Below, piece after piece: positions 1,983 through 21,053 of a DNA stretch of 64,000 bases. The DNA is taken from the IMG/VR virus record IMGVR_UViG_3300032397_000002, positions 104,623 through 168,622 of that record; one strand, written 5' to 3'. The DNA comes from a virus. Both the position numbers and the translations under genes were made by a program. Numbering within the stretch: the stretch's first letter is position 1; every line of letters begins with the position of its first letter. The notes under the pieces are model-generated. The model saw only the letters and a program-made list of their open reading frames with translations, ran no database searches and had not been told where the DNA came from.

Positions 1983-2011
1983 GTTCTACATGAACCAGAC
2001 CCAGACGTCAA
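1983..2011 (-). promoter_or_regulatory. Sigma70-type early promoter, leaderless spacing
   Basis: TTGACG-17 nt-TAGAAC, then 6 nt to ATG 1976. Confidence 0.8.
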
Positions 2012-3808: not shown

Positions 3809-5077
3809 CTAGTCTTCATCATCGTCCTCGTATCTTGAACCAAAGCCCAGCTTACGCTCTTTCGGGGGAGGAGTCCAGCCCTTGTCGCGTGCCATCTGGT
3901 AGATTTCAGCCAGGGAGACCCTGCTGGTGAACATCGGCCTGGCGTGGAGCGGTTCTCCAAGGTCGGGATAGATGACCGCATCATTTCCGGTCAGGCGCTT
4001 GTAGATTTCAGCTGCCTTCTCGGGGCTCACCAGGCCCACATGAACCATTGCTGAGAGACGACCCGGGCGCTTGATGGCCTCATCGACGTCCTGATGATGT
4101 GCATTCGTTGTGGCCACGATGCGCACATCAAGAAGCTGGCCCAAGATTCCGTCTCCAAGGTTCAGGATGACGCTCACCGAGGACATGTTGTCTCCCATAC
4201 GTGGAGCCAGGCATTCATCCGCATCCTCGATGAGGAAGACCATCGGCTTCTCACCACGGCTCTGGTGCAAGCTCACCAGGGCTGGAATCATGCCCGGCTG
4301 GCCAAGCTCCTGAACGAGGTTCGCCGGCACGATGACGAAGATGACGTCCTTGACCTGGTCCAAGAGCCCGCGCACAAGGAAGGTCTTCCCAGTGCCAGGC
4401 TTGCCGTCCAAGATGGCGACACGCCCAGCGGGAGTGGAGCTGCCCAGGTCGGCGATGATGCGGTCAAAGCCCTTGAGGACATCGTCCTCGTAGTTGCCAC
4501 GTTCCAGGGTTTGACCACCGATGCCCATGGACTTGAACTCTGGTCCATCGCTGGTGCTGATGAGCACGTGCACACGCCCCCTTGGAATCGAGGTGGTGGT
4601 GTTCTCGGCGATGAATTTCTGAGTCTCGGCCATGAAGGCCGGGTCCCGGCTGACGGCATGGACATCCACTTTCACATCACCGTCGTGATTGATGCACACA
4701 GCACCATGGTCTGCGATGTAGTGAAGCTGGGTCTCCTGCCGACGGTTGGCGGCCCTGTCGTAGTTCAACGGCCTGAGTCCAGGGAAGGCGGCTTCGTACC
4801 GGACACGAAAGGCTTCGACAGTGTCGTCGTCCTTCAGGCTGGCGGTGTACTGCTTTTCCAGGACCGGAGGCCCACCATGAAGGGCCATGATGCTGATGCC
4901 GATGCTTGCCCAGCCGGTGCTGTAGTGAGAGTCCAGAGTTGGCAGCCGTGAGGCTTTCCACCAGGGTCCATTAATGTCAATCGGGTCAGTCATGTCTTCT
5001 TCATCTCCGGTTTCCGTACCTTCACCTAAAATCGCCCTTCTGACTTCTCTCCACTCCCTGGACCGCTGAATGGTCAT
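3809..5077 (-). CDS. AAA+ ATPase (BCS1-like phage family)
   Basis: Walker A GKPGTGKT, Walker B FLIEDAD, TTN sensor, RPGR; alternative start at 4993. Confidence 0.85.
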   Translation of the reverse strand: MTIQRSREWREVRRAILGEGTETGDEEDMTDPIDINGPWWKASRLPTLDSHYSTGWASIGISIMALHGGPPVLEKQYTASLKDDDTVEAFRVRYEAAFPGLRPLNYDRAANRRQETQLHYIADHGAVCINHDGDVKVDVHAVSRDPAFMAETQKFIAENTTTSIPRGRVHVLISTSDGPEFKSMGIGGQTLERGNYEDDVLKGFDRIIADLGSSTPAGRVAILDGKPGTGKTFLVRGLLDQVKDVIFVIVPANLVQELGQPGMIPALVSLHQSRGEKPMVFLIEDADECLAPRMGDNMSSVSVILNLGDGILGQLLDVRIVATTNAHHQDVDEAIKRPGRLSAMVHVGLVSPEKAAEIYKRLTGNDAVIYPDLGEPLHARPMFTSRVSLAEIYQMARDKGWTPPPKERKLGFGSRYEDDDED

Positions 5078-5187
5078 TCCTTGTCAGACCTGCGACTGAT
5101 ATACATCAAGAAGCAGATGAGTATCAGAGTGGACCAAAGGACGCCAGCACCATAGACAGCCAAGATGTCGATTACGAGCTGGCTCAT
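5074..5187 (-). CDS. Small membrane protein
   Basis: MSQLVIDILAVYGAGVLWSTLILICFLMY; ATGA-coupled. Confidence 0.5.
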   Translation of the reverse strand: MSQLVIDILAVYGAGVLWSTLILICFLMYISRRSDKE

Positions 5188-5507
5188 GTCATTGACCTCA
5201 TGAGGGGACCTCGAAGGCGGCTTTTGAGCTGCTCCAGGCGCTCGACTCCACCAGGGGTCAGGTAGTAGCCGAAGTTGTGTCGGTGGAGGCACTTCGTGGT
5301 GACCAGGGAATCGATGTAGACCAGCATGGTCCTGTCTTCATGGAGGTTCGAGCCAAGCACCCCCAGGGCAGCGGCAGTCAACAGCCCCTTCCTGTAGCCA
5401 GGGTAGCGCCTTACTGCATCCAAAAGCACGAAGGCTTCGAGGTCGGGGGCAGCACATGCACTATGAGGCAGTTGCTCGGAGCGCTTGTATTCGTTGAGGT
5501 CGTTCAT
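5184..5507 (-). CDS. Putative winged-helix protein
   Basis: YYLTPGGVERLEQL wing motif; own promoter. Confidence 0.55.
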   Translation of the reverse strand: MNDLNEYKRSEQLPHSACAAPDLEAFVLLDAVRRYPGYRKGLLTAAALGVLGSNLHEDRTMLVYIDSLVTTKCLHRHNFGYYLTPGGVERLEQLKSRLRGPLMRSMT

Positions 5508-6592
5508 TCCATCGATTCTACCGTTTCCACGAGGAGCTTGTCAAGTTCCATGACTGGCGGGCTGTTGGGCAGCTTGCTGGTCTTGTAGAGAGCCTCCAGC
5601 TCTGCGTCCTGGCGGTCAGCCCACTCCAGGAGCTGGTCATAGGTCCACAGGCCGTTGCGGATCGCCAACAGCTCCTCGGCGTCGGGGCGCTTCACCAGCA
5701 CCCCCTTGCCCTCCAGAATCTCACGGCACATGCGCATGAGGCGGATGAGGTGCATGCCGTGCTTGGTGTCGTAGCCCCACTTGCGCTCCAACTCACTCCT
5801 GGTAGCGTTGCGGGTGGCCAACCAGGTCTGGTAGCTGCGCCATTCAGCGATGGCGGTGTTGAAACGACGCTCACGGTCCATCAGGTCGATGAAGTTGTCG
5901 TCCAGGCCGAGCTTCTTGCCGGCCAGGATCCACTGGTTCTCCTTCAGAACGCCCTGCTCAGCGAGGCTTGCGGTGATGTGGCTCATCAGGTCGATACGGG
6001 CAGCGTCGTCCATGTGGGTCAGGTCGACGTCCCATGCCTCCACCTGCTTCTTGATGGCAGCCTGGACGACATCCAGCTGGTTCTTGGGGATGAGAGGGCT
6101 CGGGGGCAGTCCGAAGTCCCCTCGCTCTGGTGGCTTCTGGGGTCCACCGTCGATCCACCTCTTGTGGGAGCGAATTTTCTTCAGCTGGGAGACCGCGTAC
6201 CCCGAGAATGTGTGCTTGGCCTTCTTGCTGATGAAGAGGTCACGCTTTTGGAGGATGGGGATGGCCAGCGGGTGGACAATCTGATGGTCGCTGACGTCGG
6301 TGAACAGAACCTCGATGATGCTCGGGTTGCAGTCGGCGGCCAGCTTGAAGAACTTCTGGATGCCGTAGACGACCATGTCAGGGTCGCCCTTGAACTCAGC
6401 CTGCTCGAAGCGCTTGGCGAAGCCCAGGAAGTACTGCTTGGGCGGCACACAGAAGCCCTTGTAGTCGCGGTCGCTGGTGGGCAGGTTGGTGCCGTAGGCG
6501 TGGCTGCCATGGGCCGTCAGGAACAGGGTCCTGGGCCAGAGCCAGTCGATGTCCTTGCGGTCTTTGGTCAGGTCGGGGAGTGTGAGCTTCAT
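5504..6592 (-). CDS. Pol-beta superfamily nucleotidyltransferase (Nuc-transf/RlaP-like)
   Basis: HGSHAYGTNLPTSDRDYKG, NPSIIEVLF, YDTKHGMHLIRL, LLAIRNG. Confidence 0.85.
   Translation of the reverse strand: MKLTLPDLTKDRKDIDWLWPRTLFLTAHGSHAYGTNLPTSDRDYKGFCVPPKQYFLGFAKRFEQAEFKGDPDMVVYGIQKFFKLAADCNPSIIEVLFTDVSDHQIVHPLAIPILQKRDLFISKKAKHTFSGYAVSQLKKIRSHKRWIDGGPQKPPERGDFGLPPSPLIPKNQLDVVQAAIKKQVEAWDVDLTHMDDAARIDLMSHITASLAEQGVLKENQWILAGKKLGLDDNFIDLMDRERRFNTAIAEWRSYQTWLATRNATRSELERKWGYDTKHGMHLIRLMRMCREILEGKGVLVKRPDAEELLAIRNGLWTYDQLLEWADRQDAELEALYKTSKLPNSPPVMELDKLLVETVESME
5515..5544 (-). promoter_or_regulatory. Sigma70-type promoter inside the 3' end of the nucleotidyltransferase gene
   Basis: TTGACA-18 nt-TAGAAT, 7 nt to ATG 5507. 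Confidence 0.75.
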
Positions 6593-10848: not shown

Positions 10849-12135
10849 CTACCCTTTCACGCAGAGGACTTGCTTCAAGGTGTGGACGACCTCAACGAGG
10901 TCTCGCTGAGCTTCCATCACCGCGTCAATGTCCTTGTAGGCTGCAGGGGTCTCATCGACCACCTCGGCGTCCTTGCGGCACTCGACACCCTCGGTGGCCT
11001 TGATGTGGTCCTCGACCGTGAATTGCTTGCGCGCCTGGGTACGAGACATGGCACGACCAGCCCCGTGGCTGCACGAGTCGAAGCTGTCTGGGTTGCCGAG
11101 GCCACGGACGATGTAGGAGCGGGTCCCCATCGAGCCGGGTATGATGCCCAGGTCGCCCTTGCGCGCACGTACAGCCCCCTTGCGGGTCACGTAGACGTTG
11201 GCTCCGAAGTGATGCTCCTTGGCAACGTAGTTGTGGTGGCAGTTGACGGCGAACTCGTAGCCGGCTGCCAGGTCCAGCACGTTCATGGCAGGTTGGATGA
11301 TTTCAGGGAAGTAGTGGTGCATCTGCCCCATGACGGCAAGAGCCATGAGGTCGCGATTCTTGGAGGCATACTCCTGCGCCCAGCCGACTGCTTCCATGTA
11401 GTCGTTGAAAAGCTCGGTGTTCTCGGGGAAGTAGGCGAGGTCCTTGTCGGGGAGGTTGATGTAGAACTTCTGCATCTCCTCACGAGCCTTGCTGATGAAG
11501 AAGGAGCCGATGGCGTTGCCGGGCCCACGCGAGCCGCTGTGCAGCATCACCCAGACATGTTGCTCTTCGTCCAGGCAGACCTCCACGAAGTGGTTGCCAG
11601 TGCCAAGGGTACCAAGGTGGCGATCCACCGACTTGTGCTTGATTTTCGGATACTTGTCGGTGATGCGCTTGTAGCGCTCCACCATGGATTCCTGCATGAA
11701 GGGGGCGTACTCCAGCGTGGCCTTCACGTCCAGCGGGATGGTTCCCCACGCTCCACGGTCGCCGGGCCCACCATTGGAGGTACGACCGTGCGGCACCGCA
11801 CGCTCAATGGCGTTGCGAAGCTTGGCCAGGTTGTCGGGCAGGTCAGAGGCACGGAGGGGAGTGCGAATTGCCATCATGCCACAGCCGATGTCAACTCCCA
11901 CGGCAGCGGGGATGATGGCCCCACGGGTGGGAATCACAGAGCCGACGGTGGCGCCAATGCCGGCGTGGACGTCGGGCATGATGGCCACGTGCTCGTGAAT
12001 GAAGGGCATGCTGGCGATGTTCAGGACCTGCTGACGCGCTTGCTCCTCGAAGAGGACGCCTCGGGTCCAGGACTTCACCAGGGCCTTGCCAGACTCAGCT
12101 TGGAATGGAACATCGTAATTTCGGTTGGGATTCAT
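10849..12135 (-). CDS. rtcB: RtcB RNA/tRNA ligase
   Basis: MPDVHAGIGATVG, GVDIGCG, LGTLGTGNHF, HSGSRG, NCHHNY, PGSMG, SHGAGR, VCVKG-like C-terminus. Confidence 0.97.
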   Translation of the reverse strand: MNPNRNYDVPFQAESGKALVKSWTRGVLFEEQARQQVLNIASMPFIHEHVAIMPDVHAGIGATVGSVIPTRGAIIPAAVGVDIGCGMMAIRTPLRASDLPDNLAKLRNAIERAVPHGRTSNGGPGDRGAWGTIPLDVKATLEYAPFMQESMVERYKRITDKYPKIKHKSVDRHLGTLGTGNHFVEVCLDEEQHVWVMLHSGSRGPGNAIGSFFISKAREEMQKFYINLPDKDLAYFPENTELFNDYMEAVGWAQEYASKNRDLMALAVMGQMHHYFPEIIQPAMNVLDLAAGYEFAVNCHHNYVAKEHHFGANVYVTRKGAVRARKGDLGIIPGSMGTRSYIVRGLGNPDSFDSCSHGAGRAMSRTQARKQFTVEDHIKATEGVECRKDAEVVDETPAAYKDIDAVMEAQRDLVEVVHTLKQVLCVKG

Positions 12136-12605
12136 ATGTCCATCGCCCTCTCGTGGTAGCAGCCTTTGCACAGTACCACAGGAACGTCTCGGTTGTGAAT
12201 CTCGGATGCGAACGGGCAGAAGCCTTCGCTCACGCTATCATCAGTGCCACCACAGTCCTGGCAGACGAGCTTGACGCTTCTTGGCGAGTTGTTGATCTCC
12301 TCCAAGATGCGGTCGTTGGCGGCCTTTTTCTTGGCCAATTTTATGAGGCTCATAGCCTGCCAATGAGCCTCAATCTCTGCAGCGTCCATGTGCTTGAAGT
12401 CAACCAGACACGCGCCACACTGCATCTCGCCGTCGTCCCCGTACAAGATGGAGAAGTGGTTGGGGTCGTGACGGAGCCAGAGCAGCCTCTGGAGTCGCTC
12501 CACCTCACCTACCAGGTCGTAGACCAGCCGATGGGGCTTGTCCTTCCATTCAGCTGCCAGGGGCCCAAGCCCGCTGGGTGCGCGGTGGTAGTCGTCGGTG
12601 TTCAT
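12132..12605 (-). CDS. Hypothetical protein with C-terminal Zn finger
   Basis: CPFASEIH...LCKGCYHERAMDI; coupled. Confidence 0.6.
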   Translation of the reverse strand: MNTDDYHRAPSGLGPLAAEWKDKPHRLVYDLVGEVERLQRLLWLRHDPNHFSILYGDDGEMQCGACLVDFKHMDAAEIEAHWQAMSLIKLAKKKAANDRILEEINNSPRSVKLVCQDCGGTDDSVSEGFCPFASEIHNRDVPVVLCKGCYHERAMDI

Positions 12606-12968: not shown

Positions 12969-12997
12969 ACACTACGCCCCCTTCAGCTTGGTGTCAA
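12969..12997 (-). promoter_or_regulatory. Sigma70-type promoter
   Basis: TTGACA-17 nt-TAGTGT, 7 nt to ATG 12961; the TAG is the RNase H stop codon. Confidence 0.75.
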
Positions 12998-13484
12998 TAG
13001 CCCTTCGAGCTTTTCTTCTGGCACCTCGATTGGTCTTCTTCTGGACCCCGCCGTACTGGTACTTTCCAGCCTTGGCCAATTTATCGCACATTTCATTGAT
13101 GGGGTGGCCGTCGTGACCTCGGACCCACCTGGTGCTGACGATGGCTTGGGCACAAATTTGTCGCACATGGTTGGCCAGGGCGACGTTTTTGGTCGCTGAG
13201 AAGGCCCCGTTGGCCAGCCCCAGGACGTACTGGCTGTCTGACACCAGCTCGATGCTGTACACCTTGCCCTTCATCGCCTCGAACTCTGGGTGCCCCAATA
13301 GAGCACGAAGTCCTTCTCGGGCGCCCATCAGCTCGGCAATGTTGTTCGTGCCCACTGGTGCCCCGCCAGAGCCCGCACAGAGGACTCTGTCGTCCATCAG
13401 AACCACCCACCCCCAACCGATGGCCCCGTGACTGTTGCCACCGCTGGAGCCGTCTGCATAGACGCTGAACTTCGTCGCTGTCAC
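12972..13484 (-). CDS. rnhA: Ribonuclease HI
   Basis: YADGS, TNNIAELMGA, SDSQYV, WVRGH, NEMCDKLA; GTG at 13484. Confidence 0.92.
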   Translation of the reverse strand: MTATKFSVYADGSSGGNSHGAIGWGWVVLMDDRVLCAGSGGAPVGTNNIAELMGAREGLRALLGHPEFEAMKGKVYSIELVSDSQYVLGLANGAFSATKNVALANHVRQICAQAIVSTRWVRGHDGHPINEMCDKLAKAGKYQYGGVQKKTNRGARRKARRAIDTKLKGA

Positions 13485-13762
13485 TTCTTGCTCCAGGGGC
13501 ACCACGAGCTGTGAAAGGGGGAGCCGAACTTGTGCCCCAGCTTGTGTGCCCCGCACTCACATGTGCTGGTGAGGTCGTCAAAGAAGACGTTCTTGCGCGG
13601 CTGCAAGACCTTCTGCATGCCGTAGTACCTCATGTTGGTGCCTGGGACGGCCACACCGGGGCATGGTCGGACCTGGTTTGTCATGACGGCCATGATGGTT
13701 ACCCGTGCCCTACAGACCCGACAGACACTCACCAGGTCTTTCGTTTCAAAGTCGTGGTCCAT
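13481..13762 (-). CDS. Zn-binding hypothetical protein with CECG...HSSWCP tag
   Basis: CRVC plus C-terminal tag. Confidence 0.6.
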   Translation of the reverse strand: MDHDFETKDLVSVCRVCRARVTIMAVMTNQVRPCPGVAVPGTNMRYYGMQKVLQPRKNVFFDDLTSTCECGAHKLGHKFGSPFHSSWCPWSKK

Positions 13763-13763
13763 G

Positions 13764-14225
13764 TTAGTTCAGAAGACCGCCGGTAGGCGAAGAGGTACGA
13801 GGGAGCTTCGCTCTGACAGCAACCTCATCCAGAAGCTCCGCACTCTCGAAAATCTTCCTCAATTCAGTGACATGGACACGAATCGGAGCCAAGATGGGCT
13901 CCAACTTCTCCTCTTCGAGGCCCGGGAAGTCGTCGGCGCTGAGAGAGATTTCCAGAAGCTTAGTGAAGAAGTTGAATCTCTCGTTGTCCAGCGGGAGCAT
14001 TGCCGTCGGGATACCGTGGAGACCCATCAGGGCCCCAACCACGACCAGTGGTTGCTCGGCCTGATTCATGTACTCGGTCGTCCTCAGGATGCTCACGCAT
14101 TGGAGGGGGACGGAGTCCTCGCTGTAGAGAATTTTCTTCAGGGCCCTGGTGAAGTCGAGCCGAAGCAGGCTTCTGAGGGCTCCGAGCTGGTCTACATTGA
14201 CGACTGGCACTCTGAGCAAGCTCAC
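13764..14225 (-). CDS. Hypothetical protein
   Basis: GGAGG RBS; GTGA coupling. Confidence 0.55.
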   Translation of the reverse strand: MSLLRVPVVNVDQLGALRSLLRLDFTRALKKILYSEDSVPLQCVSILRTTEYMNQAEQPLVVVGALMGLHGIPTAMLPLDNERFNFFTKLLEISLSADDFPGLEEEKLEPILAPIRVHVTELRKIFESAELLDEVAVRAKLPRTSSPTGGLLN

Positions 14226-14446
14226 ACTGCCTCCTGGTGCAAGACTTGGAAGGGTTGGGCGTTGTTCCAGTAGACGAGGTCCCCTGGGTCACCTTCCGAC
14301 ATGATGAACTCCAAGATGAGGTCTGCCAGCGTCCCCTTGGGGGTGACGCCACAGTCGAACTTGATGCCTCTTTCCAAATTCTCGTACACGACCGAAACTC
14401 CTTGTTTTGTATCTCTGACAGTCCAGCGGGCTCCGAGGGATTTCAT
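14222..14446 (-). CDS. Hypothetical protein
   Basis: Start placed downstream of promoter. Confidence 0.55.
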   Translation of the reverse strand: MKSLGARWTVRDTKQGVSVVYENLERGIKFDCGVTPKGTLADLILEFIMSEGDPGDLVYWNNAQPFQVLHQEAV

Positions 14447-14455
14447 GGTGCCCCA

Positions 14456-14484
14456 TGTGTATCTGACTGGGGCCCACATGTCAA
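14456..14484 (-). promoter_or_regulatory. Sigma70-type promoter
   Basis: TTGACA-17 nt-TACACA, 9 nt to ATG 14446. Confidence 0.55.
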
Positions 14485-14690
14485 GTCACCAGGAGGACCT
14501 GAATGCGCTCTTCCCCGGCCTCGACATTGGTCTTGAAGTCCTCCTCAATGCCGTACTTGGTCTTGAGGGCCGTCGTGGCGTGGACATCGGCCACACGGTA
14601 GTTGTGGTCACACCCTTCGACCACCAGGAGGGCGTTCTCGTCCACGTCGGCGAGCATTTCGCGAAGCTTCTTGACAGTAATAGCTCTCAC
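14481..14690 (-). CDS. Hypothetical protein
   Basis: ITVKKLREMLADVDEN, a common phage N-terminus. Confidence 0.6.
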   Translation of the reverse strand: MRAITVKKLREMLADVDENALLVVEGCDHNYRVADVHATTALKTKYGIEEDFKTNVEAGEERIQVLLVT

Positions 14691-14902
14691 ACTCGGCCTC
14701 CCTCAAGCCACTCTTCGAGGGCCATCCTCACGGCCTTGGCTGGTGCAATGGTCCCGTCGTTCCAGTCGGTGATGAGGTCGCCAATCTCATTGCGCACCTC
14801 ACGCGGGAGAGAGTTGAAGATTTTGGCTGTCTCGTCGAGGGCCTTGAGCACCTTGGTGACGGCCCGCTGGTTCTTGGCCGTTTCGGTATGGAGACTTTTC
14901 AT
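14687..14902 (-). CDS. Hypothetical protein
   Basis: Coupled ORF. Confidence 0.55.
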   Translation of the reverse strand: MKSLHTETAKNQRAVTKVLKALDETAKIFNSLPREVRNEIGDLITDWNDGTIAPAKAVRMALEEWLEGGRV

Positions 14903-15144
14903 GCTGTCCCCGGCGACTTGATGAAGACAATGACGCGGCCATCGGGATGGGTCTTGGAAATCTCCAAGAGCTTCTCCAGAGAGGAGGTGGTCAGGACCAG
15001 GACCTCCCCGTCCTTGACCTTGAAGAGGGCCACTCCCTGCTGTTCGATTTGCCCTTCGATGCTCTTGACGATGTCACTCACTGACAGCCTCCGTGTTTTC
15101 TTGGGGGACTTCTTGCTCTTCTTGGGTGCTGCTTTCTTGCTCAC
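14899..15144 (-). CDS. Hypothetical protein with Lys-rich N-terminus
   Basis: GAGG RBS before GTG 15144. Confidence 0.5.
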   Translation of the reverse strand: MSKKAAPKKSKKSPKKTRRLSVSDIVKSIEGQIEQQGVALFKVKDGEVLVLTTSSLEKLLEISKTHPDGRVIVFIKSPGTA

Positions 15145-15373
15145 GTGGTACCTCACATGGGATGAAGACGTCGATTGGAAGGGCAATCAGTTTGCCGCAA
15201 GTGCCCGCGTTGGTGCAGAAGGTGATGAGAATACCATCGTCCAGGAGCTGGACACGAGGCTGGCCACCGATGAAGATGCCACCACTGAGAGACTTGACCA
15301 GGGTGGCCAGGTCTTGCGGTCGCATGCGGATGCGCGCCTCAGGGAAGCGCTGCCAGCTCTCGTCGAGGCTCAC
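15074..15373 (-). CDS. Hypothetical protein
   Basis: GTGA-coupled; overlaps the next gene by about 70 nt. Confidence 0.45.
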   Translation of the reverse strand: MSLDESWQRFPEARIRMRPQDLATLVKSLSGGIFIGGQPRVQLLDDGILITFCTNAGTCGKLIALPIDVFIPCEVPREQESSTQEEQEVPQENTEAVSE

Positions 15374-15795
15374 TTGGTGCCCTTCTTGGGCTTCTTTGCA
15401 TTCTTGTCGACCAGGGCCTTGATGGCCTCAATGGCCTCGCTGTCGTGAGCCCCGTAGCCGTAGAGGCTGCCGTCGGGGTTGCGCATTGCCAGGGCCTCCC
15501 AGGAGGTCTCGGTGGCACTGAAGGCGTCCTCTTCGAGGCCGTTGCAGCTGCAGTGGCTGCCGCCGTACTCCATCAGCTTGCCGTTCTTCTTGAAGAAGAT
15601 GGTCGCAGAGCCGCTGTAGTCCTCGTAGTCGTAGGCTGCCCAGAGGATTTCCTTGTCGGTGGGGAAGTTGGGGTTGTTCTCCCGCCAGTTCTTGCGGTCT
15701 TGCTCCTGGCTGTTGCTGTAGCCGGTGTTGGCGAGGCTGTCGACGACGTCCTCGTACTTCTCCCAGATACCGAAGTACTTCTTTGCGGTGGTCAT
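15370..15795 (-). CDS. Conserved phage hypothetical protein
   Basis: YEDYSGSA...GSHCSCNGLE motif. Confidence 0.7.
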   Translation of the reverse strand: MTTAKKYFGIWEKYEDVVDSLANTGYSNSQEQDRKNWRENNPNFPTDKEILWAAYDYEDYSGSATIFFKKNGKLMEYGGSHCSCNGLEEDAFSATETSWEALAMRNPDGSLYGYGAHDSEAIEAIKALVDKNAKKPKKGTK

Positions 15796-16154
15796 TTCTT
15801 CTCCAGGGACTTCTTGTAGAGCTTCAGGAACAGCTTCAGGGCGCCCATGGCTCCAACGGCGTCCACATTGAACTTCTTTCCAAGAGTGTGGCGGACATCT
15901 GAGTCCCAGTCAAGGGCCTCGTCAATCATCCGTCGCATCGCCACCTTGTCGATGACCAGGAGGTGATTGCGTTCCTTTTCATTGGCGAGGTCCTCATCTG
16001 CCTTCTTCAGGGCCCTCTTCAGTTCGGCGTGAGTCATGACCTCATTCTCGTACTCGTCAATCTCGTTGGCGAATTCCGTCAGCCTCTCGGAGGTCTGCTT
16101 GAGGATCTTTTCCGCATCCTCCACTTCAGCCAAGATTTGCCAGGCGGTGGTCAT
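15792..16154 (-). CDS. Coiled-coil hypothetical protein
   Basis: Coupled ORF. Confidence 0.6.
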   Translation of the reverse strand: MTTAWQILAEVEDAEKILKQTSERLTEFANEIDEYENEVMTHAELKRALKKADEDLANEKERNHLLVIDKVAMRRMIDEALDWDSDVRHTLGKKFNVDAVGAMGALKLFLKLYKKSLEKK

Positions 16155-16369
16155 CGTCCTCTCCTCTTGCGGTTGGCGAGCTTCTCGTTGGCCTCCGCCT
16201 TCACGATGCGGAAGAAGACCATCTCCGCCACATCTCGAAGGGGGAGGGTGTACTCCCGCCGCCGGCGGTAGGGCTTGACGCTGAAGAGGTTGGCCCCACG
16301 GTCGATGATGATGGTGACCCCAGCTGCCTGGTCAAACTTCCCGTCAACCCTGAACTTGGACTTGCTCAT
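16151..16369 (-). CDS. Small basic hypothetical protein
   Basis: Coupled ORF. Confidence 0.6.
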   Translation of the reverse strand: MSKSKFRVDGKFDQAAGVTIIIDRGANLFSVKPYRRRREYTLPLRDVAEMVFFRIVKAEANEKLANRKRRGR

Positions 16370-16551
16370 GCTTCCCCCAGGTCTACCATGTTCTCGAAGT
16401 CCAGAACAGGGTCCTGACCAAGCTGGTAGGCGAACCAGGCATTTTCTTGGTCTTGGACCGTGAGGTCGCAGGGGTCATCGCCTTCGTCATGCTCGACGAC
16501 AATGACGACCTTCTTGCGGGCAACTACTTCGACTTCCACCTTGCTCTTCAC
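16366..16551 (-). CDS. Small acidic hypothetical protein
   Basis: Coupled ORF. Confidence 0.5.
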   Translation of the reverse strand: MKSKVEVEVVARKKVVIVVEHDEGDDPCDLTVQDQENAWFAYQLGQDPVLDFENMVDLGEA

Positions 16552-17504
16552 TTGGTCTCCAGTGCGGCCTTTGCCGCCTTCTTGGCAGCGCGGGCCGCCT
16601 TCTTCTCAGCCTTCGCCTTCTCAGCGTCGACCCACTCCTGGGTGACCGCATTGACGCGGGTCAGAGTGGTCTGCTTCAGGCCCTTGTAGTCCTCGTTCTT
16701 CTTGACGGTGCCGGCCAGGATGTACTCGTTGCCGATGACCCAGGTGCCCTCGGAGAAGCTGCCCGAGGCGAACCAGGTGAGGGCGTTGCCGGCCTCAGAG
16801 ACGAACTTGAGCATCGTGGTGCAGCCGTAGTTGCCTTCCAGCTCCTTCTGGCCCATGAGGGTGGCCTTCACCACCACCTTGTCGCCCTCGGTGGCGAAGA
16901 ACTTCGAGGTCTCCTTGAGGTTCGAGAACTTGCGGCGCTCGATCTCCTTGCCCTGCTCGCGGGTGGCGGTGGCGATGATGCTGGCCGCGATGCCCGAGCC
17001 CTTGAAGTCGATGACGCCCATGCGGCAGACGATGTTCAGGTTGTGGAGGTAGTCGTTCAGCTCGCCCTTGTCCAGCTCGCTGTCGATGAAGACCTGGAGG
17101 TACTCCTTGCAGTCCTGGCCGCGCTTGAAGTCTTCGGCGGTGGGGATGTACTTGGGGTTGATGTCGCGGGTCTTGCCCGAGGCGACCGCCATCATCACGC
17201 CCCAGGCGGTGTCAGCCGAGGCGTGGATGGTAGCCCCACCACCGTTGTTCATGTTGCGGGCCTGGGTGCGGCTCATCCAGCCATCGACCCGGATGACGGC
17301 GGCCACGTGGCCCAGGAAGGTGACGAGGCTGAAGTGGGTCATCCGCTCGCCACCCATGCCACCCTCGAACTCCTCGCCAGCCGAGACGGCGTCGGCCAGG
17401 TACTCGAAGAGCTTGGCGACATTCTCGGGGTTCGCGTGGCCCAGGAAGTCAGCGAGGCAGTTGCTGCCGACGACCTTGAACTCGGGGTTGGTGGTTGCGT
17501 TCAT
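16548..17504 (-). CDS. C-terminal half of a split phage protein (VGSNCLADFLG plus C-terminal OB-fold)
   Basis: Start reassigned to ATG 17504 from the promoter; GN.LTWFAS...GTVK...YKGLKQTTLTRV OB-like end. Confidence 0.75.
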   Translation of the reverse strand: MNATTNPEFKVVGSNCLADFLGHANPENVAKLFEYLADAVSAGEEFEGGMGGERMTHFSLVTFLGHVAAVIRVDGWMSRTQARNMNNGGGATIHASADTAWGVMMAVASGKTRDINPKYIPTAEDFKRGQDCKEYLQVFIDSELDKGELNDYLHNLNIVCRMGVIDFKGSGIAASIIATATREQGKEIERRKFSNLKETSKFFATEGDKVVVKATLMGQKELEGNYGCTTMLKFVSEAGNALTWFASGSFSEGTWVIGNEYILAGTVKKNEDYKGLKQTTLTRVNAVTQEWVDAEKAKAEKKAARAAKKAAKAALETK

Positions 17505-17511
17505 GAGTTGT

Positions 17512-17540
17512 GTTCTACAGGAGTCTTTCTGGGCCGTCAA
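17512..17540 (-). promoter_or_regulatory. Sigma70-type promoter, near-copy of 18673..18701
   Basis: TTGACG-17 nt-TAGAAC, 7 nt to ATG 17504. Confidence 0.85.
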
Positions 17541-17544
17541 GCCC

Positions 17545-18021
17545 TCAGCTGTCGAAATCGAACACAATTCGCAAGTTGTCGGGATTCCCGGGCATTGCGA
17601 GGTCGACCAACTCCTTCAGGATGTCGGCCCAGCCCTCACCCAGGAACTCCAGGAGGGTGACCGGCGGGCCAGGCTCGAAGCCAGGAGCCCCAGTGTACGG
17701 TGGGCGGACATCGACGAAGGTCTGGTTGTAGTCGACCGCCAACAGCTCTGTCAGGGTCAGGTAGGAAGCGCTGTGGACGCCCCAGTCGGTGCCATCCTTG
17801 TACTCCTTGATGCGGTGCTGGGTGGCAGGGGAGCCGTCCTGGGGATAGCCACGAGGCTCTGGGAGCACCTTGGGCACGTCAGAGTAGTTCCGCACGGCCC
17901 CGCCTGTCAGGAAGGCGAAGCGGCCGTAGGTGCGGTCTTCGAGGTAGTCTGGAGCCGGCATGTCGACCCAGGTGCCGTCAGTCATGCGAATTTCCACGTA
18001 CGGATGAATGTCACAGCCCAT
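17545..18021 (-). CDS. Conserved phage hypothetical protein (MGCDIH family)
   Basis: MGCDIHPYVE...RTYGRFAFL...VRN...PRGYP...HSASYLT...RIVFDFDS. Confidence 0.75.
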   Translation of the reverse strand: MGCDIHPYVEIRMTDGTWVDMPAPDYLEDRTYGRFAFLTGGAVRNYSDVPKVLPEPRGYPQDGSPATQHRIKEYKDGTDWGVHSASYLTLTELLAVDYNQTFVDVRPPYTGAPGFEPGPPVTLLEFLGEGWADILKELVDLAMPGNPDNLRIVFDFDS

Positions 18022-18205
18022 CTTCGACCTCCACTTCAAGGACTTCGTAGCGGCTCGTCTTGCTCTTGCTCAGCCGATTCATCTTGGAGGCCAGGCCATA
18101 GGCCCTTTCCTTGGAGAAGAAGGCTGCCTCGGGGGCGCTGTAGCCCTCGTAGTCAGCCTCGAAGGCCACCAGGTAGACGGTTCGTTTCTCGGGCTTGTCG
18201 GTCAC
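18011..18205 (-). CDS. Small hypothetical protein (VY+V family)
   Basis: GTGA-coupled to 18202. Confidence 0.55.
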   Translation of the reverse strand: MTDKPEKRTVYLVAFEADYEGYSAPEAAFFSKERAYGLASKMNRLSKSKTSRYEVLEVEVEDGL

Positions 18206-18666
18206 GGGGTCTTCCTCAGCACGTACAGCGTCTTGCGACGGCGCTCAGTGTTGCAGTGGTCGCAGCCGGTGGCGTGCTCGCGGAGGTGGGCGGGGATGGT
18301 CTCACCGGGGGCGTTGCGAACCATGACGGCCTTCTCACCGTCCACGTCCACCACGTCCAGGGCTGCAGCGAAGGTCCAGCCGGCCAGCTTGGGGCGGGGG
18401 CCCGAGACGGTCACAGTGTGGAAGCGGTCGAACACGCCCAGGCCGATCTCCTTGCCGTTGATGTCCAGGCGGGTCTCGCCGTACGGGGTCTTGGACTTGC
18501 GCTCCACGTCCTCGGTGGCGATGACCTTCATCTCGATGGGCTGGCCCACCAGCTTCACGGCCTTCTTGGAGAGCTTGGCAAGCCTCTCGCGGAGGGCTTC
18601 CAGGTTGCCGTCCGGGATGCGGAAGGTCTGGATGACTTCGGTCTCGGTGGTGGTTTCGTTGGACAT
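18202..18666 (-). CDS. N-terminal half of a split phage protein (ends CDHCNTERRRKTLYVLRKTP)
   Basis: PKLAGWTFAA and CxHC...RRRK..Y motifs. Confidence 0.75.
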   Translation of the reverse strand: MSNETTTETEVIQTFRIPDGNLEALRERLAKLSKKAVKLVGQPIEMKVIATEDVERKSKTPYGETRLDINGKEIGLGVFDRFHTVTVSGPRPKLAGWTFAAALDVVDVDGEKAVMVRNAPGETIPAHLREHATGCDHCNTERRRKTLYVLRKTP

Positions 18667-18672
18667 GGCAGT

Positions 18673-18701
18673 GTTCTACAGGAACGCTTTCTGGCTGTCA
18701 A
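18673..18701 (-). promoter_or_regulatory. Sigma70-type promoter
   Basis: TTGACA-17 nt-TAGAAC, 6 nt to ATG 18666; the TAG is the HNH gene stop codon. Confidence 0.85.
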
Positions 18702-19860
18702 GGGCCCCAAAGAGCTTGCTGCAGTGCTCGTAGATTTTCCTCACGTGGGCAAGGTACTCGCCACCAGCTTGCTTACCTTTTGCATAGTTACATGTAGTAC
18801 AACAAGGAACGCAGTTCCCAGGCACGTATCCCTTGCTGTTGTCCCAGCGGTCAATCCCATTGACTAAAATCTCCGACGGCGTACCCCCACCCAAAACTCT
18901 GGAGAACCGCTCGCCGCAGAAAGCACATGCCCCTCTGAACAATTCAATCGCCTTCTCTTCAGAGAGAGACCAGCAGTAGCCACGGGATTCAGCGCCTTGG
19001 CGGTACCCTCTTATCAATCGAATAAACCGGCCCTTCACCGTTACCTTCAGCATTTGCTGGTGTTGCCAACTGCCGCGTAGACATCCGCAACTACGAGCGC
19101 CAGCCTTCTTTTTGCGAAGGTGCCCCGCCGAGACTAAGTAGTTCTTTGTCCCGCAAGAGCAGTCAGCCCGCCACCACCTGCCATCACCACCATAACCCTT
19201 TTCGGCTCTGGACACTACAGTCAACATTCCGAAAATCTGTCCGATTTGGATTTTGTCGGGTTGACTGAGTCCTCGTTCCCGGGCCAACTCCACCGAGAGG
19301 CATCCACAGCTCCTTGTCTTGCCGCCGAGAAGGGTCGAGGCCCGCCGTAACAGATTGTGCCGGCCACAAGAGCAGTCGACTCGCCATCTGGTGCCGCCTT
19401 GTTTGTCAATCCTGCTGGATTCACCAACAACGGTTAATCGACCAAAGGTCTGGCCGATTGTAATCCCGGCACGGTTGATCCTCTTTAGCCCTAGTTGACG
19501 GCACATTTCATCGTTGAGGCAGCCACAGCTCCTGGTACTGCCAGCATGCAGGCCCTTCTGTTCTCTCAGTAGCCCTTTCTTACCGCAAGAGCAGTCGACG
19601 ACCCATACCCGACCACCACGTCGTCTTTCCTCAGCCTCAGCTACAACCGTCAATCTTCCGAAGGTCTGGCCGACGTAAACTTTCAGACACGCACAGCCCG
19701 TGGATTTTCCACTCATCAACTTGCTGGCGGTGACAACGCGCTCTGTCCCGCATTGACATTTGACACCCCAGGCGACCGCGCCCAGGTGGCGGCTTTCTGG
19801 TCCAACGACCGTCCACTTTCCGAAAACCTGACCAACCTGAAGTTGTGGAGATCTAGCCAT
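18676..19860 (-). CDS. HNH-type homing endonuclease with four tandem Cys-rich repeats
   Basis: Four GQxFGxLTVV...CxCG...SCGC repeats; C-terminal CAFCG...NGIDRWDNSKGYVPGNCVPCCTTCN; atypical codon usage. Confidence 0.8.
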   Translation of the reverse strand: MARSPQLQVGQVFGKWTVVGPESRHLGAVAWGVKCQCGTERVVTASKLMSGKSTGCACLKVYVGQTFGRLTVVAEAEERRRGGRVWVVDCSCGKKGLLREQKGLHAGSTRSCGCLNDEMCRQLGLKRINRAGITIGQTFGRLTVVGESSRIDKQGGTRWRVDCSCGRHNLLRRASTLLGGKTRSCGCLSVELARERGLSQPDKIQIGQIFGMLTVVSRAEKGYGGDGRWWRADCSCGTKNYLVSAGHLRKKKAGARSCGCLRGSWQHQQMLKVTVKGRFIRLIRGYRQGAESRGYCWSLSEEKAIELFRGACAFCGERFSRVLGGGTPSEILVNGIDRWDNSKGYVPGNCVPCCTTCNYAKGKQAGGEYLAHVRKIYEHCSKLFGALDSQKAFL

Positions 19861-20101
19861 GGCTGCATTTTCGGTACATCGAGTTGAAGAGGGCCAGTCG
19901 GGCAGCAGCCAGTGGCAGGTAGGCGCCGCCAGTTTCGGGCCACCGAGCGATGAGGCCCTCTACCTCCGTCTCCAGCTCTGCGCGAACCCGCTGAATGGCC
20001 ATATCCTTGATCTCATTGAGACCGTAGTGCCCACGAAGATCGGGCTTCAGCTGGTCATACATAGCCATGACGCGAGTCGTCAGGTCGTCTCTGGTGGTCA
20101 T
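19853..20101 (-). CDS. Hypothetical protein
   Basis: Coupled ORF. Confidence 0.5.
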   Translation of the reverse strand: MTTRDDLTTRVMAMYDQLKPDLRGHYGLNEIKDMAIQRVRAELETEVEGLIARWPETGGAYLPLAAARLALFNSMYRKCSHG

Positions 20102-20874
20102 GGCATCCTCACGAACTTGTCAACGAACTCGCGGTCAGCCGTGAACACCGGCGTCTCCTCGGGGATGTACCACTCGCTGCGCAGCACGGTGCCAATCTCC
20201 CTGGTGCCGGCCGGCTGGAACTTGACAAACTCGTTGAAGAACTCCTTCTCGACCTGGCGCTTCACCACCACGCGACCGTCCTTCAGGTGGGAGTGGAGGT
20301 CTGCCCAGTTGTGGCCCTTCTGGAAGCACAGCTCGTGTTGCTCAGCTCGACCCTTGCCCTGCAGCTCCTTGTGGCTGTAGAGGCTCTGAGAGAGCATGGA
20401 GAGGCTGTTCCGGTTCCAGTCCTGCTGTCTCCACACAAAGTAGTTGGTTACCTCACCTGGTGGGAGAATGAAGGCACGTGCGTCGAAGGTGGCCACACGG
20501 ACCTCGGGGAAGAGACGGTCGCTTTGAGCCGTCAACATCGCCGAGGCCATGCCTGCGGCCACACTAACCATCTTCTGCAGGTTGTTGTCGAACCAGGAGC
20601 TGGTCTTGATGTCCTGGTAGTCCACCAGGAGCAGGCTGATTTCATCGCTCTGGGTGTAGGCCATGACACAATTCTGCACGTTGTGACAGAGGTACTTCGT
20701 CACCGTGTCCATGACGTCCATCAGGTCTTCACTGAAGGGGCGCTTGAGACCCTTCGTGTAGGTGTGGAACGCCTTCCCGTCCAGGCGGATGATGACTGGG
20801 AGCTTCGTGGTCAGGTGAGCCCGCGAGACATCCTCGTAGGCCTTCATGCGGTCGCCCAAGCTGTCGTGACTCAT
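20098..20874 (-). CDS. thg1: Thg1-like tRNA(His) guanylyltransferase / 3'-5' polymerase
   Basis: LGDRMKAYE, IRLDGKAFHTYT, YTQSDEISL, FDARAF, NYFVWRQQD. Confidence 0.95.
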   Translation of the reverse strand: MSHDSLGDRMKAYEDVSRAHLTTKLPVIIRLDGKAFHTYTKGLKRPFSEDLMDVMDTVTKYLCHNVQNCVMAYTQSDEISLLLVDYQDIKTSSWFDNNLQKMVSVAAGMASAMLTAQSDRLFPEVRVATFDARAFILPPGEVTNYFVWRQQDWNRNSLSMLSQSLYSHKELQGKGRAEQHELCFQKGHNWADLHSHLKDGRVVVKRQVEKEFFNEFVKFQPAGTREIGTVLRSEWYIPEETPVFTADREFVDKFVRMP

Positions 20875-21053
20875 TCTTCCTCCTCAGTGCCGTCCTCGTC
20901 TTCTTCCTCTTCGTCCTCGCCTGCAATCTCTTTCTCGTACTGCTTGAGGCAGTCATCGCCGCAGAAACCGTCGTCATAGCTCCCATACGAGTAGTCATGG
21001 AAGCATTGCTGACAGATGCCCACCTGCTTTGGAATCTTGTTTGGCTTGCTCAT
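20871..21053 (-). CDS. Small Cys/acidic protein
   Basis: CQQC...FCGDDC; poly-Glu tail. Confidence 0.55.
   Translation of the reverse strand: MSKPNKIPKQVGICQQCFHDYSYGSYDDGFCGDDCLKQYEKEIAGEDEEEEDEDGTEEEE

Follow-up and report, generated by a model that had tools for sequence, protein, structure and literature searches.

The question raised by this locus is whether two neighboring open reading frames of a virus are the separated parts of a single phage gene and, if so, whether the divided protein still works and what divided it. The DNA analyzed, here called the window, is a stretch of 64,000 nucleotides, and all features discussed below lie on its minus strand. The upstream ORF (18202..18666), referred to as the N-half, encodes 154 amino acids, comprising an alpha/beta domain and the first three putative metal ligands, Cys135, His137 and Cys138; its product ends in CDHCNTERRRKTLYVLRKTP before the stop. 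The downstream ORF (16548..17504), the C-half, encodes 318 amino acids beginning with MNATTNPEFKVVGSNCLADFLG. It holds the second strand of a hairpin with the fourth putative ligand, Cys16, followed by a helical domain, an OB fold and a Lys/Ala-rich tail. A sequence-only reading of the window had described this layout, with two further ORFs between the halves, and its coordinates are correct.

Both halves belong to the phage protein family phrog_2319. The N-half matches positions 4-128 of the 399-position profile (E 2e-17) and the C-half positions 131-395 (E 2e-44), so that jointly they span the profile except for 2 internal positions. In cultured phages the homologue is one CDS. The N-half and C-half matches exactly abut within one annotated CDS of Cronobacter phage S13, and they lie about 20 nt apart in the same CDS of Tunturiibacter phage Tunturi_5 and of Streptomyces phage Zuko. 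In the intact homologue P0025, residues 2-138 align with the N-half and residues 121-411 with the C-half. The proposal that one ancestral gene was broken inside its Cys/His motif is borne out by these matches to the N- and C-terminal parts of single phrog_2319 proteins. The family ranges from T4-like phages to actinophages. Its members begin at the N-terminus with an alpha/beta domain, continue with a Cys-x-His-Cys...Cys beta-hairpin and a helical domain, and end at the C-terminus in an OB fold and a basic tail. The window resembles it in covering the whole profile and in possessing the Cys/His motif and the C-terminal OB fold, but differs in that its copy is made as two polypeptides, from ORFs 697 nt apart, and not as a single chain. 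The genome of 168.6 kb contains no second copy of the phrog_2319 gene. Searches of Pfam, NCBIfam and PADLOC gave no family for the halves, the ORFs between them or the intact homologues, and blastn against cultured phages returned just one match, of 58 nt and at chance level, which reveals no close cultured relative.

The position of the break suggests how the two parts could still act together. The motif described in the sequence-only reading proved real: about 80 intact homologues carry C-x-H-C...R...T-[YF]-V-[VL]...V-G-x-x-C-L-x-D-F-L-G in an invariant or almost invariant form. In the window it is shared out over two chains, with CDHC at residues 135-138 of the N-half and GSNCLADF at residues 13-20 of the C-half. 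Cys135, His137 and Cys138 are near-invariant among N-halves and Cys16 is invariant among C-halves. An AlphaFold2 model of intact P0025 (pLDDT 93) predicts that strands 131-137 and 142-146 form a hairpin flanked by C123 and C149; the turn of this modeled hairpin is where the break falls. In all 12 loci examined the break lies inside the turn, and only 2-12 extra, non-family residues are present at the junction. A cut at this place would leave the N-half with the first strand and three putative ligands, and the C-half with the second strand and the fourth. The two polypeptides may then reassemble non-covalently around the common hairpin and zinc site. The ligands kept on both halves make a two-subunit protein with a metal site in common the best reading, and it is likely that the two ORFs encode the subunits of a split yet working phrog_2319 member, a heterodimer built around a shared zinc hairpin.

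Structure prediction of the pair is consistent with such a heterodimer. Folding of the N-half with the C-half and zinc gave a predicted complex with a score of 0.54, against 0.00 for the best of three controls. At least 88% of the contacts agreed between the predicted complexes, and the partner pLDDT was at least 79. In a benchmark whose counts are only approximate here, in view of the custom alignments and the riding zinc, this mark was attained for 58 of 80 solved complexes and for 2 of 110 pairs with mismatched partners, and among those that attained it a score of 0.60 or lower was found for only 7 of the 80 solved complexes and for both mismatches. The multimer prediction proposed in the sequence-only reading thus separates the pair from its controls but supports it weakly. 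This weak support would fit halves that are now independent proteins, for example a helical-plus-OB binder and a separate N-domain protein, with no common zinc site. BFVD contains phage proteins of only 211-260 amino acids that align with the intact model over 230-250 columns, and residues 169-287 of the C-half also match shorter PHROG families, which points in the same direction. We nevertheless consider independence unlikely, since the four ligands are kept on both sides across deep divergence and every locus has both halves side by side, in a constant order and preceded by the same class of promoter.

Stand-alone halves are not restricted to the window. Metagenomes contain about 30 C-halves and 18 N-halves (138-163 aa). 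The C-halves, with identities between 95% and 42%, without exception begin M-x(2-12)-[YF]-K-V-V-G-x-x-C. Wherever DNA of the locus was available (12 of 12 loci), an N-half precedes the C-half at a distance of 41-1404 nt. Homologues are single genes in cultured phages, while a two-gene form occurs in a metagenomic clade. The same break in these C-halves, N-halves and loci contradicts the idea that the split is private to the phage or lineage of the window. If one or both halves were decaying fragments of a dead gene, loss of conserved features should be visible, and one N-half homologue, P0137, has indeed lost the Cys motif. However, both ORFs are intact at all 12 loci, with C-half identity down to 48%, and starts and promoter-like elements are conserved. 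Nei-Gojobori dN/dS values for close pairs (dS 0.2-0.7) are well below 1, ranging over 0.10-0.38 in the N-half and 0.28-0.52 in the C-half. This agrees with the earlier claim that both halves are intact and conserved and gives no sign of neutral decay, so that a dead gene is very improbable. As judged from these sequence comparisons, the split is old, clade-wide and kept under selection, and is no recent accident of one phage. It would go back to an ancestor from which a diverse clade of uncultured phages descends. Two proteins, P0018 and P0032, have an unsplit junction yet nest among split forms, and under the AU test a single clade of split forms is rejected (p 0.0074, the group having been defined with the tree already known). 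The history therefore includes re-fusion or more than one split.

What divided the gene can be considered from the contents of the gap. In the window these are an ORF of 64 aa (18011..18205), whose GTG start overlaps the TGA stop of the N-half (GTGA) and which has GAGGAAG upstream, and an ORF of 158 aa (17545..18021), a member of phrog_10141 with GGAGG 6 nt before its ATG, whose first 11 nt coincide with the end of the 64-aa ORF. The product of the former weakly resembles DUF7336, under the Pfam cut-off. The sequence-only reading proposed that insertion of these two genes broke the ancestral gene in the lineage of the window and that a duplicated upstream promoter rescued the C-half. Both ORFs do occupy the gap. 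However, the same break point is found with unrelated ORFs in the gap or with none. The 64-aa ORF occurs only in the close relatives L002 and L043 and is absent from L003-L005, L033, L035 and L036. The gaps of L002 and L037 contain homologues of the 158-aa ORF, and L038, L039 and L043 have ORFs of similar size (150, 156 and 158 aa) at the corresponding position, but no counterpart was found in more distant split loci, and both window ORFs are confined to the subclade of the window. Elsewhere the gap holds an ORF96 family (L003, L004, L033), an 85-aa ORF (L035) or three to four ORFs, and its length ranges from 41 nt without any ORF (L036) to 1.4 kb with four small ORFs. Because the gap content varies and is a gene-free 41 nt in one locus, the 64-aa and 158-aa ORFs are lineage-specific cargo and very probably not the cause of the split. 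The Shine-Dalgarno sites and the stop/start overlaps suggest that the cargo ORFs ride on the transcript of the N-half. Since the split, small genes have come and gone in the promoter-bearing gap.

The second part of the insertion proposal concerns the promoter. The near-identical promoter-like strings reported before both halves are present: TTGACA, 17 nt and TAGAAC before the N-half (18673..18701), with an ATG 6 nt on, and TTGACG, 17 nt and TAGAAC before the C-half (17512..17540), with an ATG 7 nt on, neither having a Shine-Dalgarno sequence. A pattern derived from these two strings has 3 matches in the window, compared to 0.03 in shuffles. The third match (1983..2011) reads TTGACG, 17 nt, TAGAAC and ATG 6 nt on, and the whole genome carries five elements of the class. 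The elements were aligned for both halves of 11 split loci, L043 being read separately. All 22 aligned upstream regions have a hexamer of the TTGAC type (in two of them TTGCA), a spacer of about 17 nt, TAnnnn and an ATG 6-8 nt on, and at none of the loci is either half preceded by a Shine-Dalgarno sequence. The N-half element is present in 11 of 11 of these loci, and the C-half element lies some 40 nt ahead of the C-half start in 11 of 11, irrespective of gap content. The -10 variant differs by genome, yet it is identical before both halves. The -35 sequence TTGACA/G and the 17-nt spacing fit sigma-70, but the -10 sequence TAGAAC lacks the usual final T, and a generic sigma-70 scan makes no call. 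Conservation in the 22 upstream regions supports a function of the elements. Each half would then be transcribed from its own promoter, of one and the same phage promoter class, and its translation would begin at an ATG with no leader or almost none; both promoter activity and leaderless translation are read from the sequence of the putative elements.

It follows that an own element and a leaderless-type start for each half stand, whereas a one-off duplication is rejected in favor of a promoter class, because five such elements occur in the genome and the same class precedes both halves at every split locus examined. A trace that could be taken for duplication is CCAGAAAG, shared by the spacers of the N-half and C-half elements of the window and absent from the other three copies in the genome; some exchange between the two window copies is possible. 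Breakage by the gap ORFs with rescue by a copied promoter is, in view of the above, quite improbable.

Another gene that might have been involved is an HNH endonuclease gene (18676..19860; phrog_374, E 2e-41), located just upstream of the N-half promoter and outside the split. Its stop codon sits within the TAGAAC hexamer of the N-half promoter-like element. The block 18703-19871, which contains this gene, is missing in L043, of which the flank is 96% identical, and in L002. Since both loci show the same split, the HNH gene is ruled out as its cause. Judged by its distribution, it is a recent, lineage-specific insertion and a later arrival than the split.

Phages also possess means to restore one product from an interrupted gene: T4 introns, bypassing in gene 60 and fractured genes with split inteins are known (PMC2988022, PMC2677866). 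In principle, an intron, a split intein or translational bypassing could make one chain of the two halves again. An Rfam scan of 15000-21000 with E values up to 1 was empty, without any group I or group II intron, and the gap is filled by two ORFs with their own ribosome sites in the window and measures only 41 nt in L036. Bypassing of the gene 60 type over this 41-nt spacer is ruled out, as the spacer consists of a conserved promoter-like element and the C-half has its own ATG, as does every C-half. No split-intein halves are present at the break, and with only 2-12 non-family residues there is no space for them, so protein splicing cannot ligate the chains. Rejoining is extremely improbable.

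The split protein left as two chains has precedents. Among the T4-type genes in pieces, nrdA of Aeh1 is split by mobE and the T4 topoisomerase genes 39/60 are associated with mobA; activity of the split Aeh1 NrdA has been demonstrated, according to a review (PMC2988022). Like these, the phrog_2319 gene is contiguous in relatives, cut at a critical region and divided into two cistrons whose products need reassembly. The gaps of nrdA and 39/60 hold a homing endonuclease gene, whereas no Pfam or PHROG nuclease match was obtained for the gap ORFs of the window and six related loci, the 158-aa ORF included. Further differences are that here the split is clade-wide, the gap content variable and the HNH gene outside the split. 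The DNA polymerase gene of Aeromonas phages 44RR and 25 is likewise split, into 43A and 43B; an untranslated stretch, in some cases accompanied by a seg gene, lies between the two cistrons, and it is doubted whether the inserted gene caused this type of split or invaded afterwards (PMC2988022). That case is similar in that a short non-coding spacer suffices, as in the 41 nt of L036, and that related phages have extra genes in the gap. It concerns another protein family, and the phrog_2319 spacer is a promoter-like element with a leaderless-type start, the cut passing through a putative zinc hairpin. Environmental phage-like sequences contain fractured genes with split inteins, in which a conserved gene is in two and foreign DNA lies between (PMC2677866); the broken conserved gene and the foreign DNA are the same here, but intein halves are not found. 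With a contiguous form in relatives and both parts retained, the phrog_2319 split is a further case of the known phage genes in pieces, although one with no recognizable homing endonuclease in the gaps examined.

A more tentative idea, which we regard as rather doubtful, is that the hairpin turn is a reversible and possibly recurrent break point, and that the promoter-bearing gap, once opened, acts as a protected landing pad and an engine of gene gain. This would require that split and unsplit forms interchanged at least twice in one clade, as is argued from the AU rejection of a single split clade. If true, a small gene arriving in the gap would be expressed together with the N-half, its sloppy deletion would kill a needed two-part protein, and the zinc site assembled in trans would serve as the clasp. 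The locus represents a natural protein cut through a putative metal-binding hairpin and still under selection. Alongside the intact forms there is a split whose spacer is a bare 41 nt, and there are others that contain between one and four cargo genes; this comparative series could be used to test split-protein reassembly, an interchain 3+1 zinc site and gene recruitment by promoter-bearing gaps. The natural split also marks a domain boundary of phrog_2319, and annotation pipelines could link two 'hypothetical proteins' as one functional unit.

The likely role of the protein can be derived from its C-terminal domain. Residues 322-408 of the intact model are predicted to form a five-stranded OB barrel, an assignment at fold level only, which resembles the RecG wedge domain (1gm5_A; Z 10.0, rmsd 2.3, 82 aligned residues) and, at Z 7-8, many OB folds of SSB, RPA and also Teb1. 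A profile search of PDB sequences found nothing below E 0.2. For residues 1-325, Foldseek and VIA-align gave no match above Z 4.9. Because residues 1-325 lack a significant structural match, the functional reading is based on the OB fold. The ESM Atlas, searched by shape with the intact model and by features with the 158-aa ORF, returned unnamed viral clusters only. Gp318 of Tunturi_5, a phrog_2319 member, is annotated as 'RecT-like ssDNA annealing protein', but a RecT/Redbeta/Rad52-type chain was absent among the matches listed for the whole model and for residues 1-325 (best Z 4.9), which leaves this label unconfirmed. Most likely, as far as the modeled fold indicates, the protein binds single-stranded nucleic acid during early infection. 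Two lower-ranked matches in BFVD carry the name ssDNA-binding protein.

The window makes up the final 64 kb of an IMG/VR virus record that is rated complete at 168,622 bp, and every gene relevant to the split lies on the minus strand. The N-half (18202-18666, 154 aa) ends in CDHCNTERRRKTLYVLRKTP directly before its stop codon, and the C-half (16548-17504, 318 aa) begins with MNATTNPEFKVVGSNCLADFLG. The sequence-only reading had taken them for two pieces of one gene, and this is confirmed by their matches to adjacent stretches of the same PHROGs family, phrog_2319: positions 4-128 of 399 for the N-half (E 2e-17) and 131-395 of 399 for the C-half (E 2e-44). In tblastn searches both halves adjoin inside single annotated genes of cultured phages. 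The matches in Cronobacter phage S13 (54201-54389 and 54390-55163) both fall in CDS S13_077. The same holds for gp318 of Tunturiibacter phage Tunturi_5 and gene 84 of Streptomyces phage Zuko, and Aeromonas phiAS5 ORF0024 and Ralstonia RsoM2USA_104 are single genes too. The Cys/His motif named in the sequence-only reading is real: about 80 intact homologues of 370-530 aa show little or no variation in C-x-H-C, R, T-[YF]-V, V-G-x-x-C and D-F. A second, intact copy of the gene was not found in the 168.6-kb genome. The observation of a split thus stands; its original interpretation is supported in part.

Two ORFs occupy the 697-nt gap. The 64-aa ORF (18011-18205) has a GTG start that overlaps the N-half stop as GTGA, with GAGGAAG immediately upstream, and the 158-aa ORF (17545-18021) overlaps it by 11 nt and carries GGAGG 6 nt 5' of its ATG; a 40-nt spacer separates the latter from the C-half. 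Given these Shine-Dalgarno sites and stop-start overlaps, both ORFs would be translated from the N-half transcript. They had been proposed to have broken the ancestral gene, which is not borne out by the relatives. Among 5.8 billion proteins searched, stand-alone C-halves number about 30 (277-323 aa, identity from 95% down to 42%), every one starting a few residues before KVVGxxC. There are 18 stand-alone N-halves; they measure 138-163 aa and, with one exception, end right past KTLYV[LV]. The DNA of 11 relatives (L002-L005, L033, L035-L039 and L043) shows both halves on one strand in each, with the N-half upstream and the break at an identical position, and the gap contents vary. The gap is 41 nt without an ORF in L036, 290 nt with an unrelated 85-aa ORF in L035, 327-360 nt with one ORF of a 96-aa family in L004, L003 and L033, and 724 nt with two ORFs in L005. 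L043 has the same 697-nt gap and 64-aa and 158-aa ORFs as the window, to which L002 adds a 67-aa ORF (918 nt); L037 and L038 have three ORFs in about 1200 nt, and L039 four in 1404 nt. None of the gap ORFs that were compared with families matched a nuclease or a family of known function. With one break point and differing contents, the window's two gap genes are to be read as cargo of one subclade rather than the cause of the break, and the split is old and common to a clade. The 96-aa family (L003 4340-4630, L005 5667-5960, L033 879-1169, L004 about 5680-5969) begins with MNxITPE and ends with LPNGTxIxWP. It occurs in the gap of at least four lineages at 35-40% identity and could be either the longest-established gene there or one whose product partners the split protein.

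Each half is preceded by a promoter-like string without a Shine-Dalgarno site, TTGACAgccagaaagcgttcctgTAGAAC at 18701-18673 with an ATG 6 nt downstream of it and TTGACGgcccagaaagactcctgTAGAAC at 17540-17512 with an ATG 7 nt downstream, both on the minus strand. The pattern built from both strings has three matches in the window against 0.03 expected. The same arrangement, a TTGAC-type and a TAnnnn hexamer about 17 nt apart with an ATG 6-8 nt beyond the second, precedes both halves in all 11 aligned split loci, with TTGCA as the -35 variant in two of the 22 upstream regions; in L043, read separately from the alignment, both elements match those of the window. The -10 variant differs among genomes and is identical before both halves within one genome, as expected of two same-class promoters tuned to one host: TGTAGAAC in the window's subclade, TGTAGAAG in L039 and GCGTATA[CT]A in L003 and L005, with TATAAC and TATATA recorded in L036. 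Five strict copies occur in the window's genome; each is on the minus strand and has an ATG at 6-7 nt. The three further TTGACN-N17-TAGAAC copies (genome positions 44380-44408, 45560-45588 and 106605-106633, the last being window 1983-2011) and the two at the split gene would form a small, putative class of leaderless-type promoters. The idea that a duplicated promoter rescued the downstream half therefore holds as to a same-class element before each half and fails as to a one-off duplication, given the 11 aligned loci and the five copies in this genome. An additional CCAGAAAG is common to the copies flanking the split, which may therefore have undergone some exchange. A generic sigma-70 scan did not call the elements, as TAGAAC does not end in T; we therefore infer promoter activity and leaderless translation from conservation and geometry.

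Both halves are intact and kept, as had been claimed. Nei-Gojobori dN/dS for the closer pairs (dS 0.2-0.7) was 0.10-0.38 for the N-half and 0.28-0.52 for the C-half; the 158-aa and 64-aa ORFs gave 0.24 and 0.60, respectively. All are upper bounds, since dS is probably lowered by strong codon bias. Among split forms Cys16 of the C-half does not vary, and Cys135, His137 and Cys138 of the N-half hardly do.

An AlphaFold2 model of the intact relative P0025 (79-row alignment, pLDDT 93) predicts a beta-alpha-beta4 domain (residues 8-102), a C120-x-H122-C123 knuckle, a hairpin of strands 131-137 and 142-146 with C149 after it, a helical domain (159-321), an OB barrel (331-408) and a long basic helix. 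The split point falls within the turn between the two hairpin strands. Solved relatives were found for the OB fold only, with the RecG wedge closest (Z 10.0, rmsd 2.3, 82 aligned) and SSB, RPA, Teb1 and PrgE at Z 7-8. Residues 1-325 folded separately (pLDDT 91.6) gave no structural match above Z 4.9. Matches in BFVD and the ESM Atlas were uncharacterised viral proteins, apart from two lower-ranked BFVD entries named ssDNA-binding protein; shorter phage proteins of 211-260 aa in BFVD cover 230-250 model columns. The 'RecT-like' label of Tunturi_5 gp318 was not confirmed. The model suggests that the split protein probably binds nucleic acid.

The halves had also been proposed to form a heterodimer with a shared zinc site. 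Folding both with zinc scored 0.54 (best control 0.00), the runs sharing at least 88% of contacts with partner pLDDT of at least 79. Among 80 solved complexes 58 reached the mark, and among 110 mismatched pairs 2 did; at 0.60 or under it was reached by just 7 of those 80 and by both mismatches, counts that apply only roughly here because own alignments and a riding zinc were used. The prior for binding is high, since both chains descend from one chain. The predicted complex is thus consistent with the heterodimer and lends it weak rather than decisive support.

In the C-region tree all split forms and six forms with an unsplit junction make up one strongly supported clade, with P0025 and the P0023 group at its unresolved base and P0018 and P0032, also unsplit, nested among split forms. 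Repeated splits could account for this, as could one split followed by re-fusion. Placing all split forms in one clade of their own fails the AU test (delta lnL 56.8, p 0.0074), for a group named after the tree was seen. Two derived details are shared by different subclades, a K-E-S-stop ending of N-halves and an M-N-A-T start of C-halves, and because of these a single origin followed by re-fusion is favoured, short of being settled. P0018 is encoded at about 4700-6220 of a 61-kb contig (CAIVQG010000034.1, uncultured deltaproteobacterium MAG, 47.5% GC), lacks the first ~30 codons of the family and is 62% identical to the window's C-half. Its neighbours are bacterial genes (SOD, a Znu-type ABC transporter), with an ArdA gene near, and the copy is probably left over from a prophage or island.

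Among known cases, T4-type genes in pieces (reviewed in PMC2988022) come closest. Aeh1 nrdA, whose two parts make up an active enzyme, is split by mobE, T4 genes 39 and 60 are split with mobA, and gene 43A/43B is separated by an untranslated spacer alone in phage 44RR and by a seg gene in the same gap in phage 25, whose role as the cause was doubted by the review's authors (PMC2988022). The gene 43 pattern is the closest likeness. The present split departs from the T4-type cases in four respects: its gap contains no recognised endonuclease gene, its spacer is promoter-like and conserved, the cut passes through a putative zinc hairpin, and the split persists across a clade with changing cargo. 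With only 2-12 extra residues at the junction, split inteins (PMC2677866) are excluded, and an intron is excluded by the negative Rfam scan and the 41-nt gap of L036. The present case joins the known class of phage genes in pieces as a new member, in which the split of an uncharacterised phage protein appears, from comparative evidence, to be functional and ancient.

An HNH endonuclease gene (18676-19860, minus strand, 394 aa) lies upstream of the N-half in a recent insertion of ~1.17 kb (block 18703-19871); neither the 96%-identical L043 nor L002 has it. The N-half's promoter-like element supplies its last ten codons and TAG stop, an overlap resembling T4 free-standing endonuclease genes, which embed downstream promoters. 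The N-terminal part of the HNH protein contains four ~71-aa repeats (DNA repeats D5 and D11, spacing ~213 nt). Shortly 3' of the C-half, past one or two small ORFs, L043, L002, L037 and L038 carry a T4 Rnl1-type RNA ligase (PF09511). This block (L043 4528-6107) is replaced in the window by ~200 nt (16370-16568) with a 61-aa ORF, and tblastn found no Rnl1-type ligase in the whole 168.6-kb genome. Identity between window 14001-20974 and L043 is 91% upstream of the HNH site, 96% across the split gene and 99.8% downstream, the mosaic boundaries being the HNH insertion and the missing ligase block. Minus-strand genes around the split gene in the window encode enzymes that process RNA and DNA ends: a nucleotidyltransferase (5504-6592, phrog_388), an RtcB ligase (10849-12171, phrog_1075), RNase H (12972-13556, phrog_531) and a Thg1-like tRNA-His guanylyltransferase (20098-20874, phrog_4717); RtcB, Thg1 and a nucleotidyltransferase are still present in the genome without the Rnl1-type ligase.
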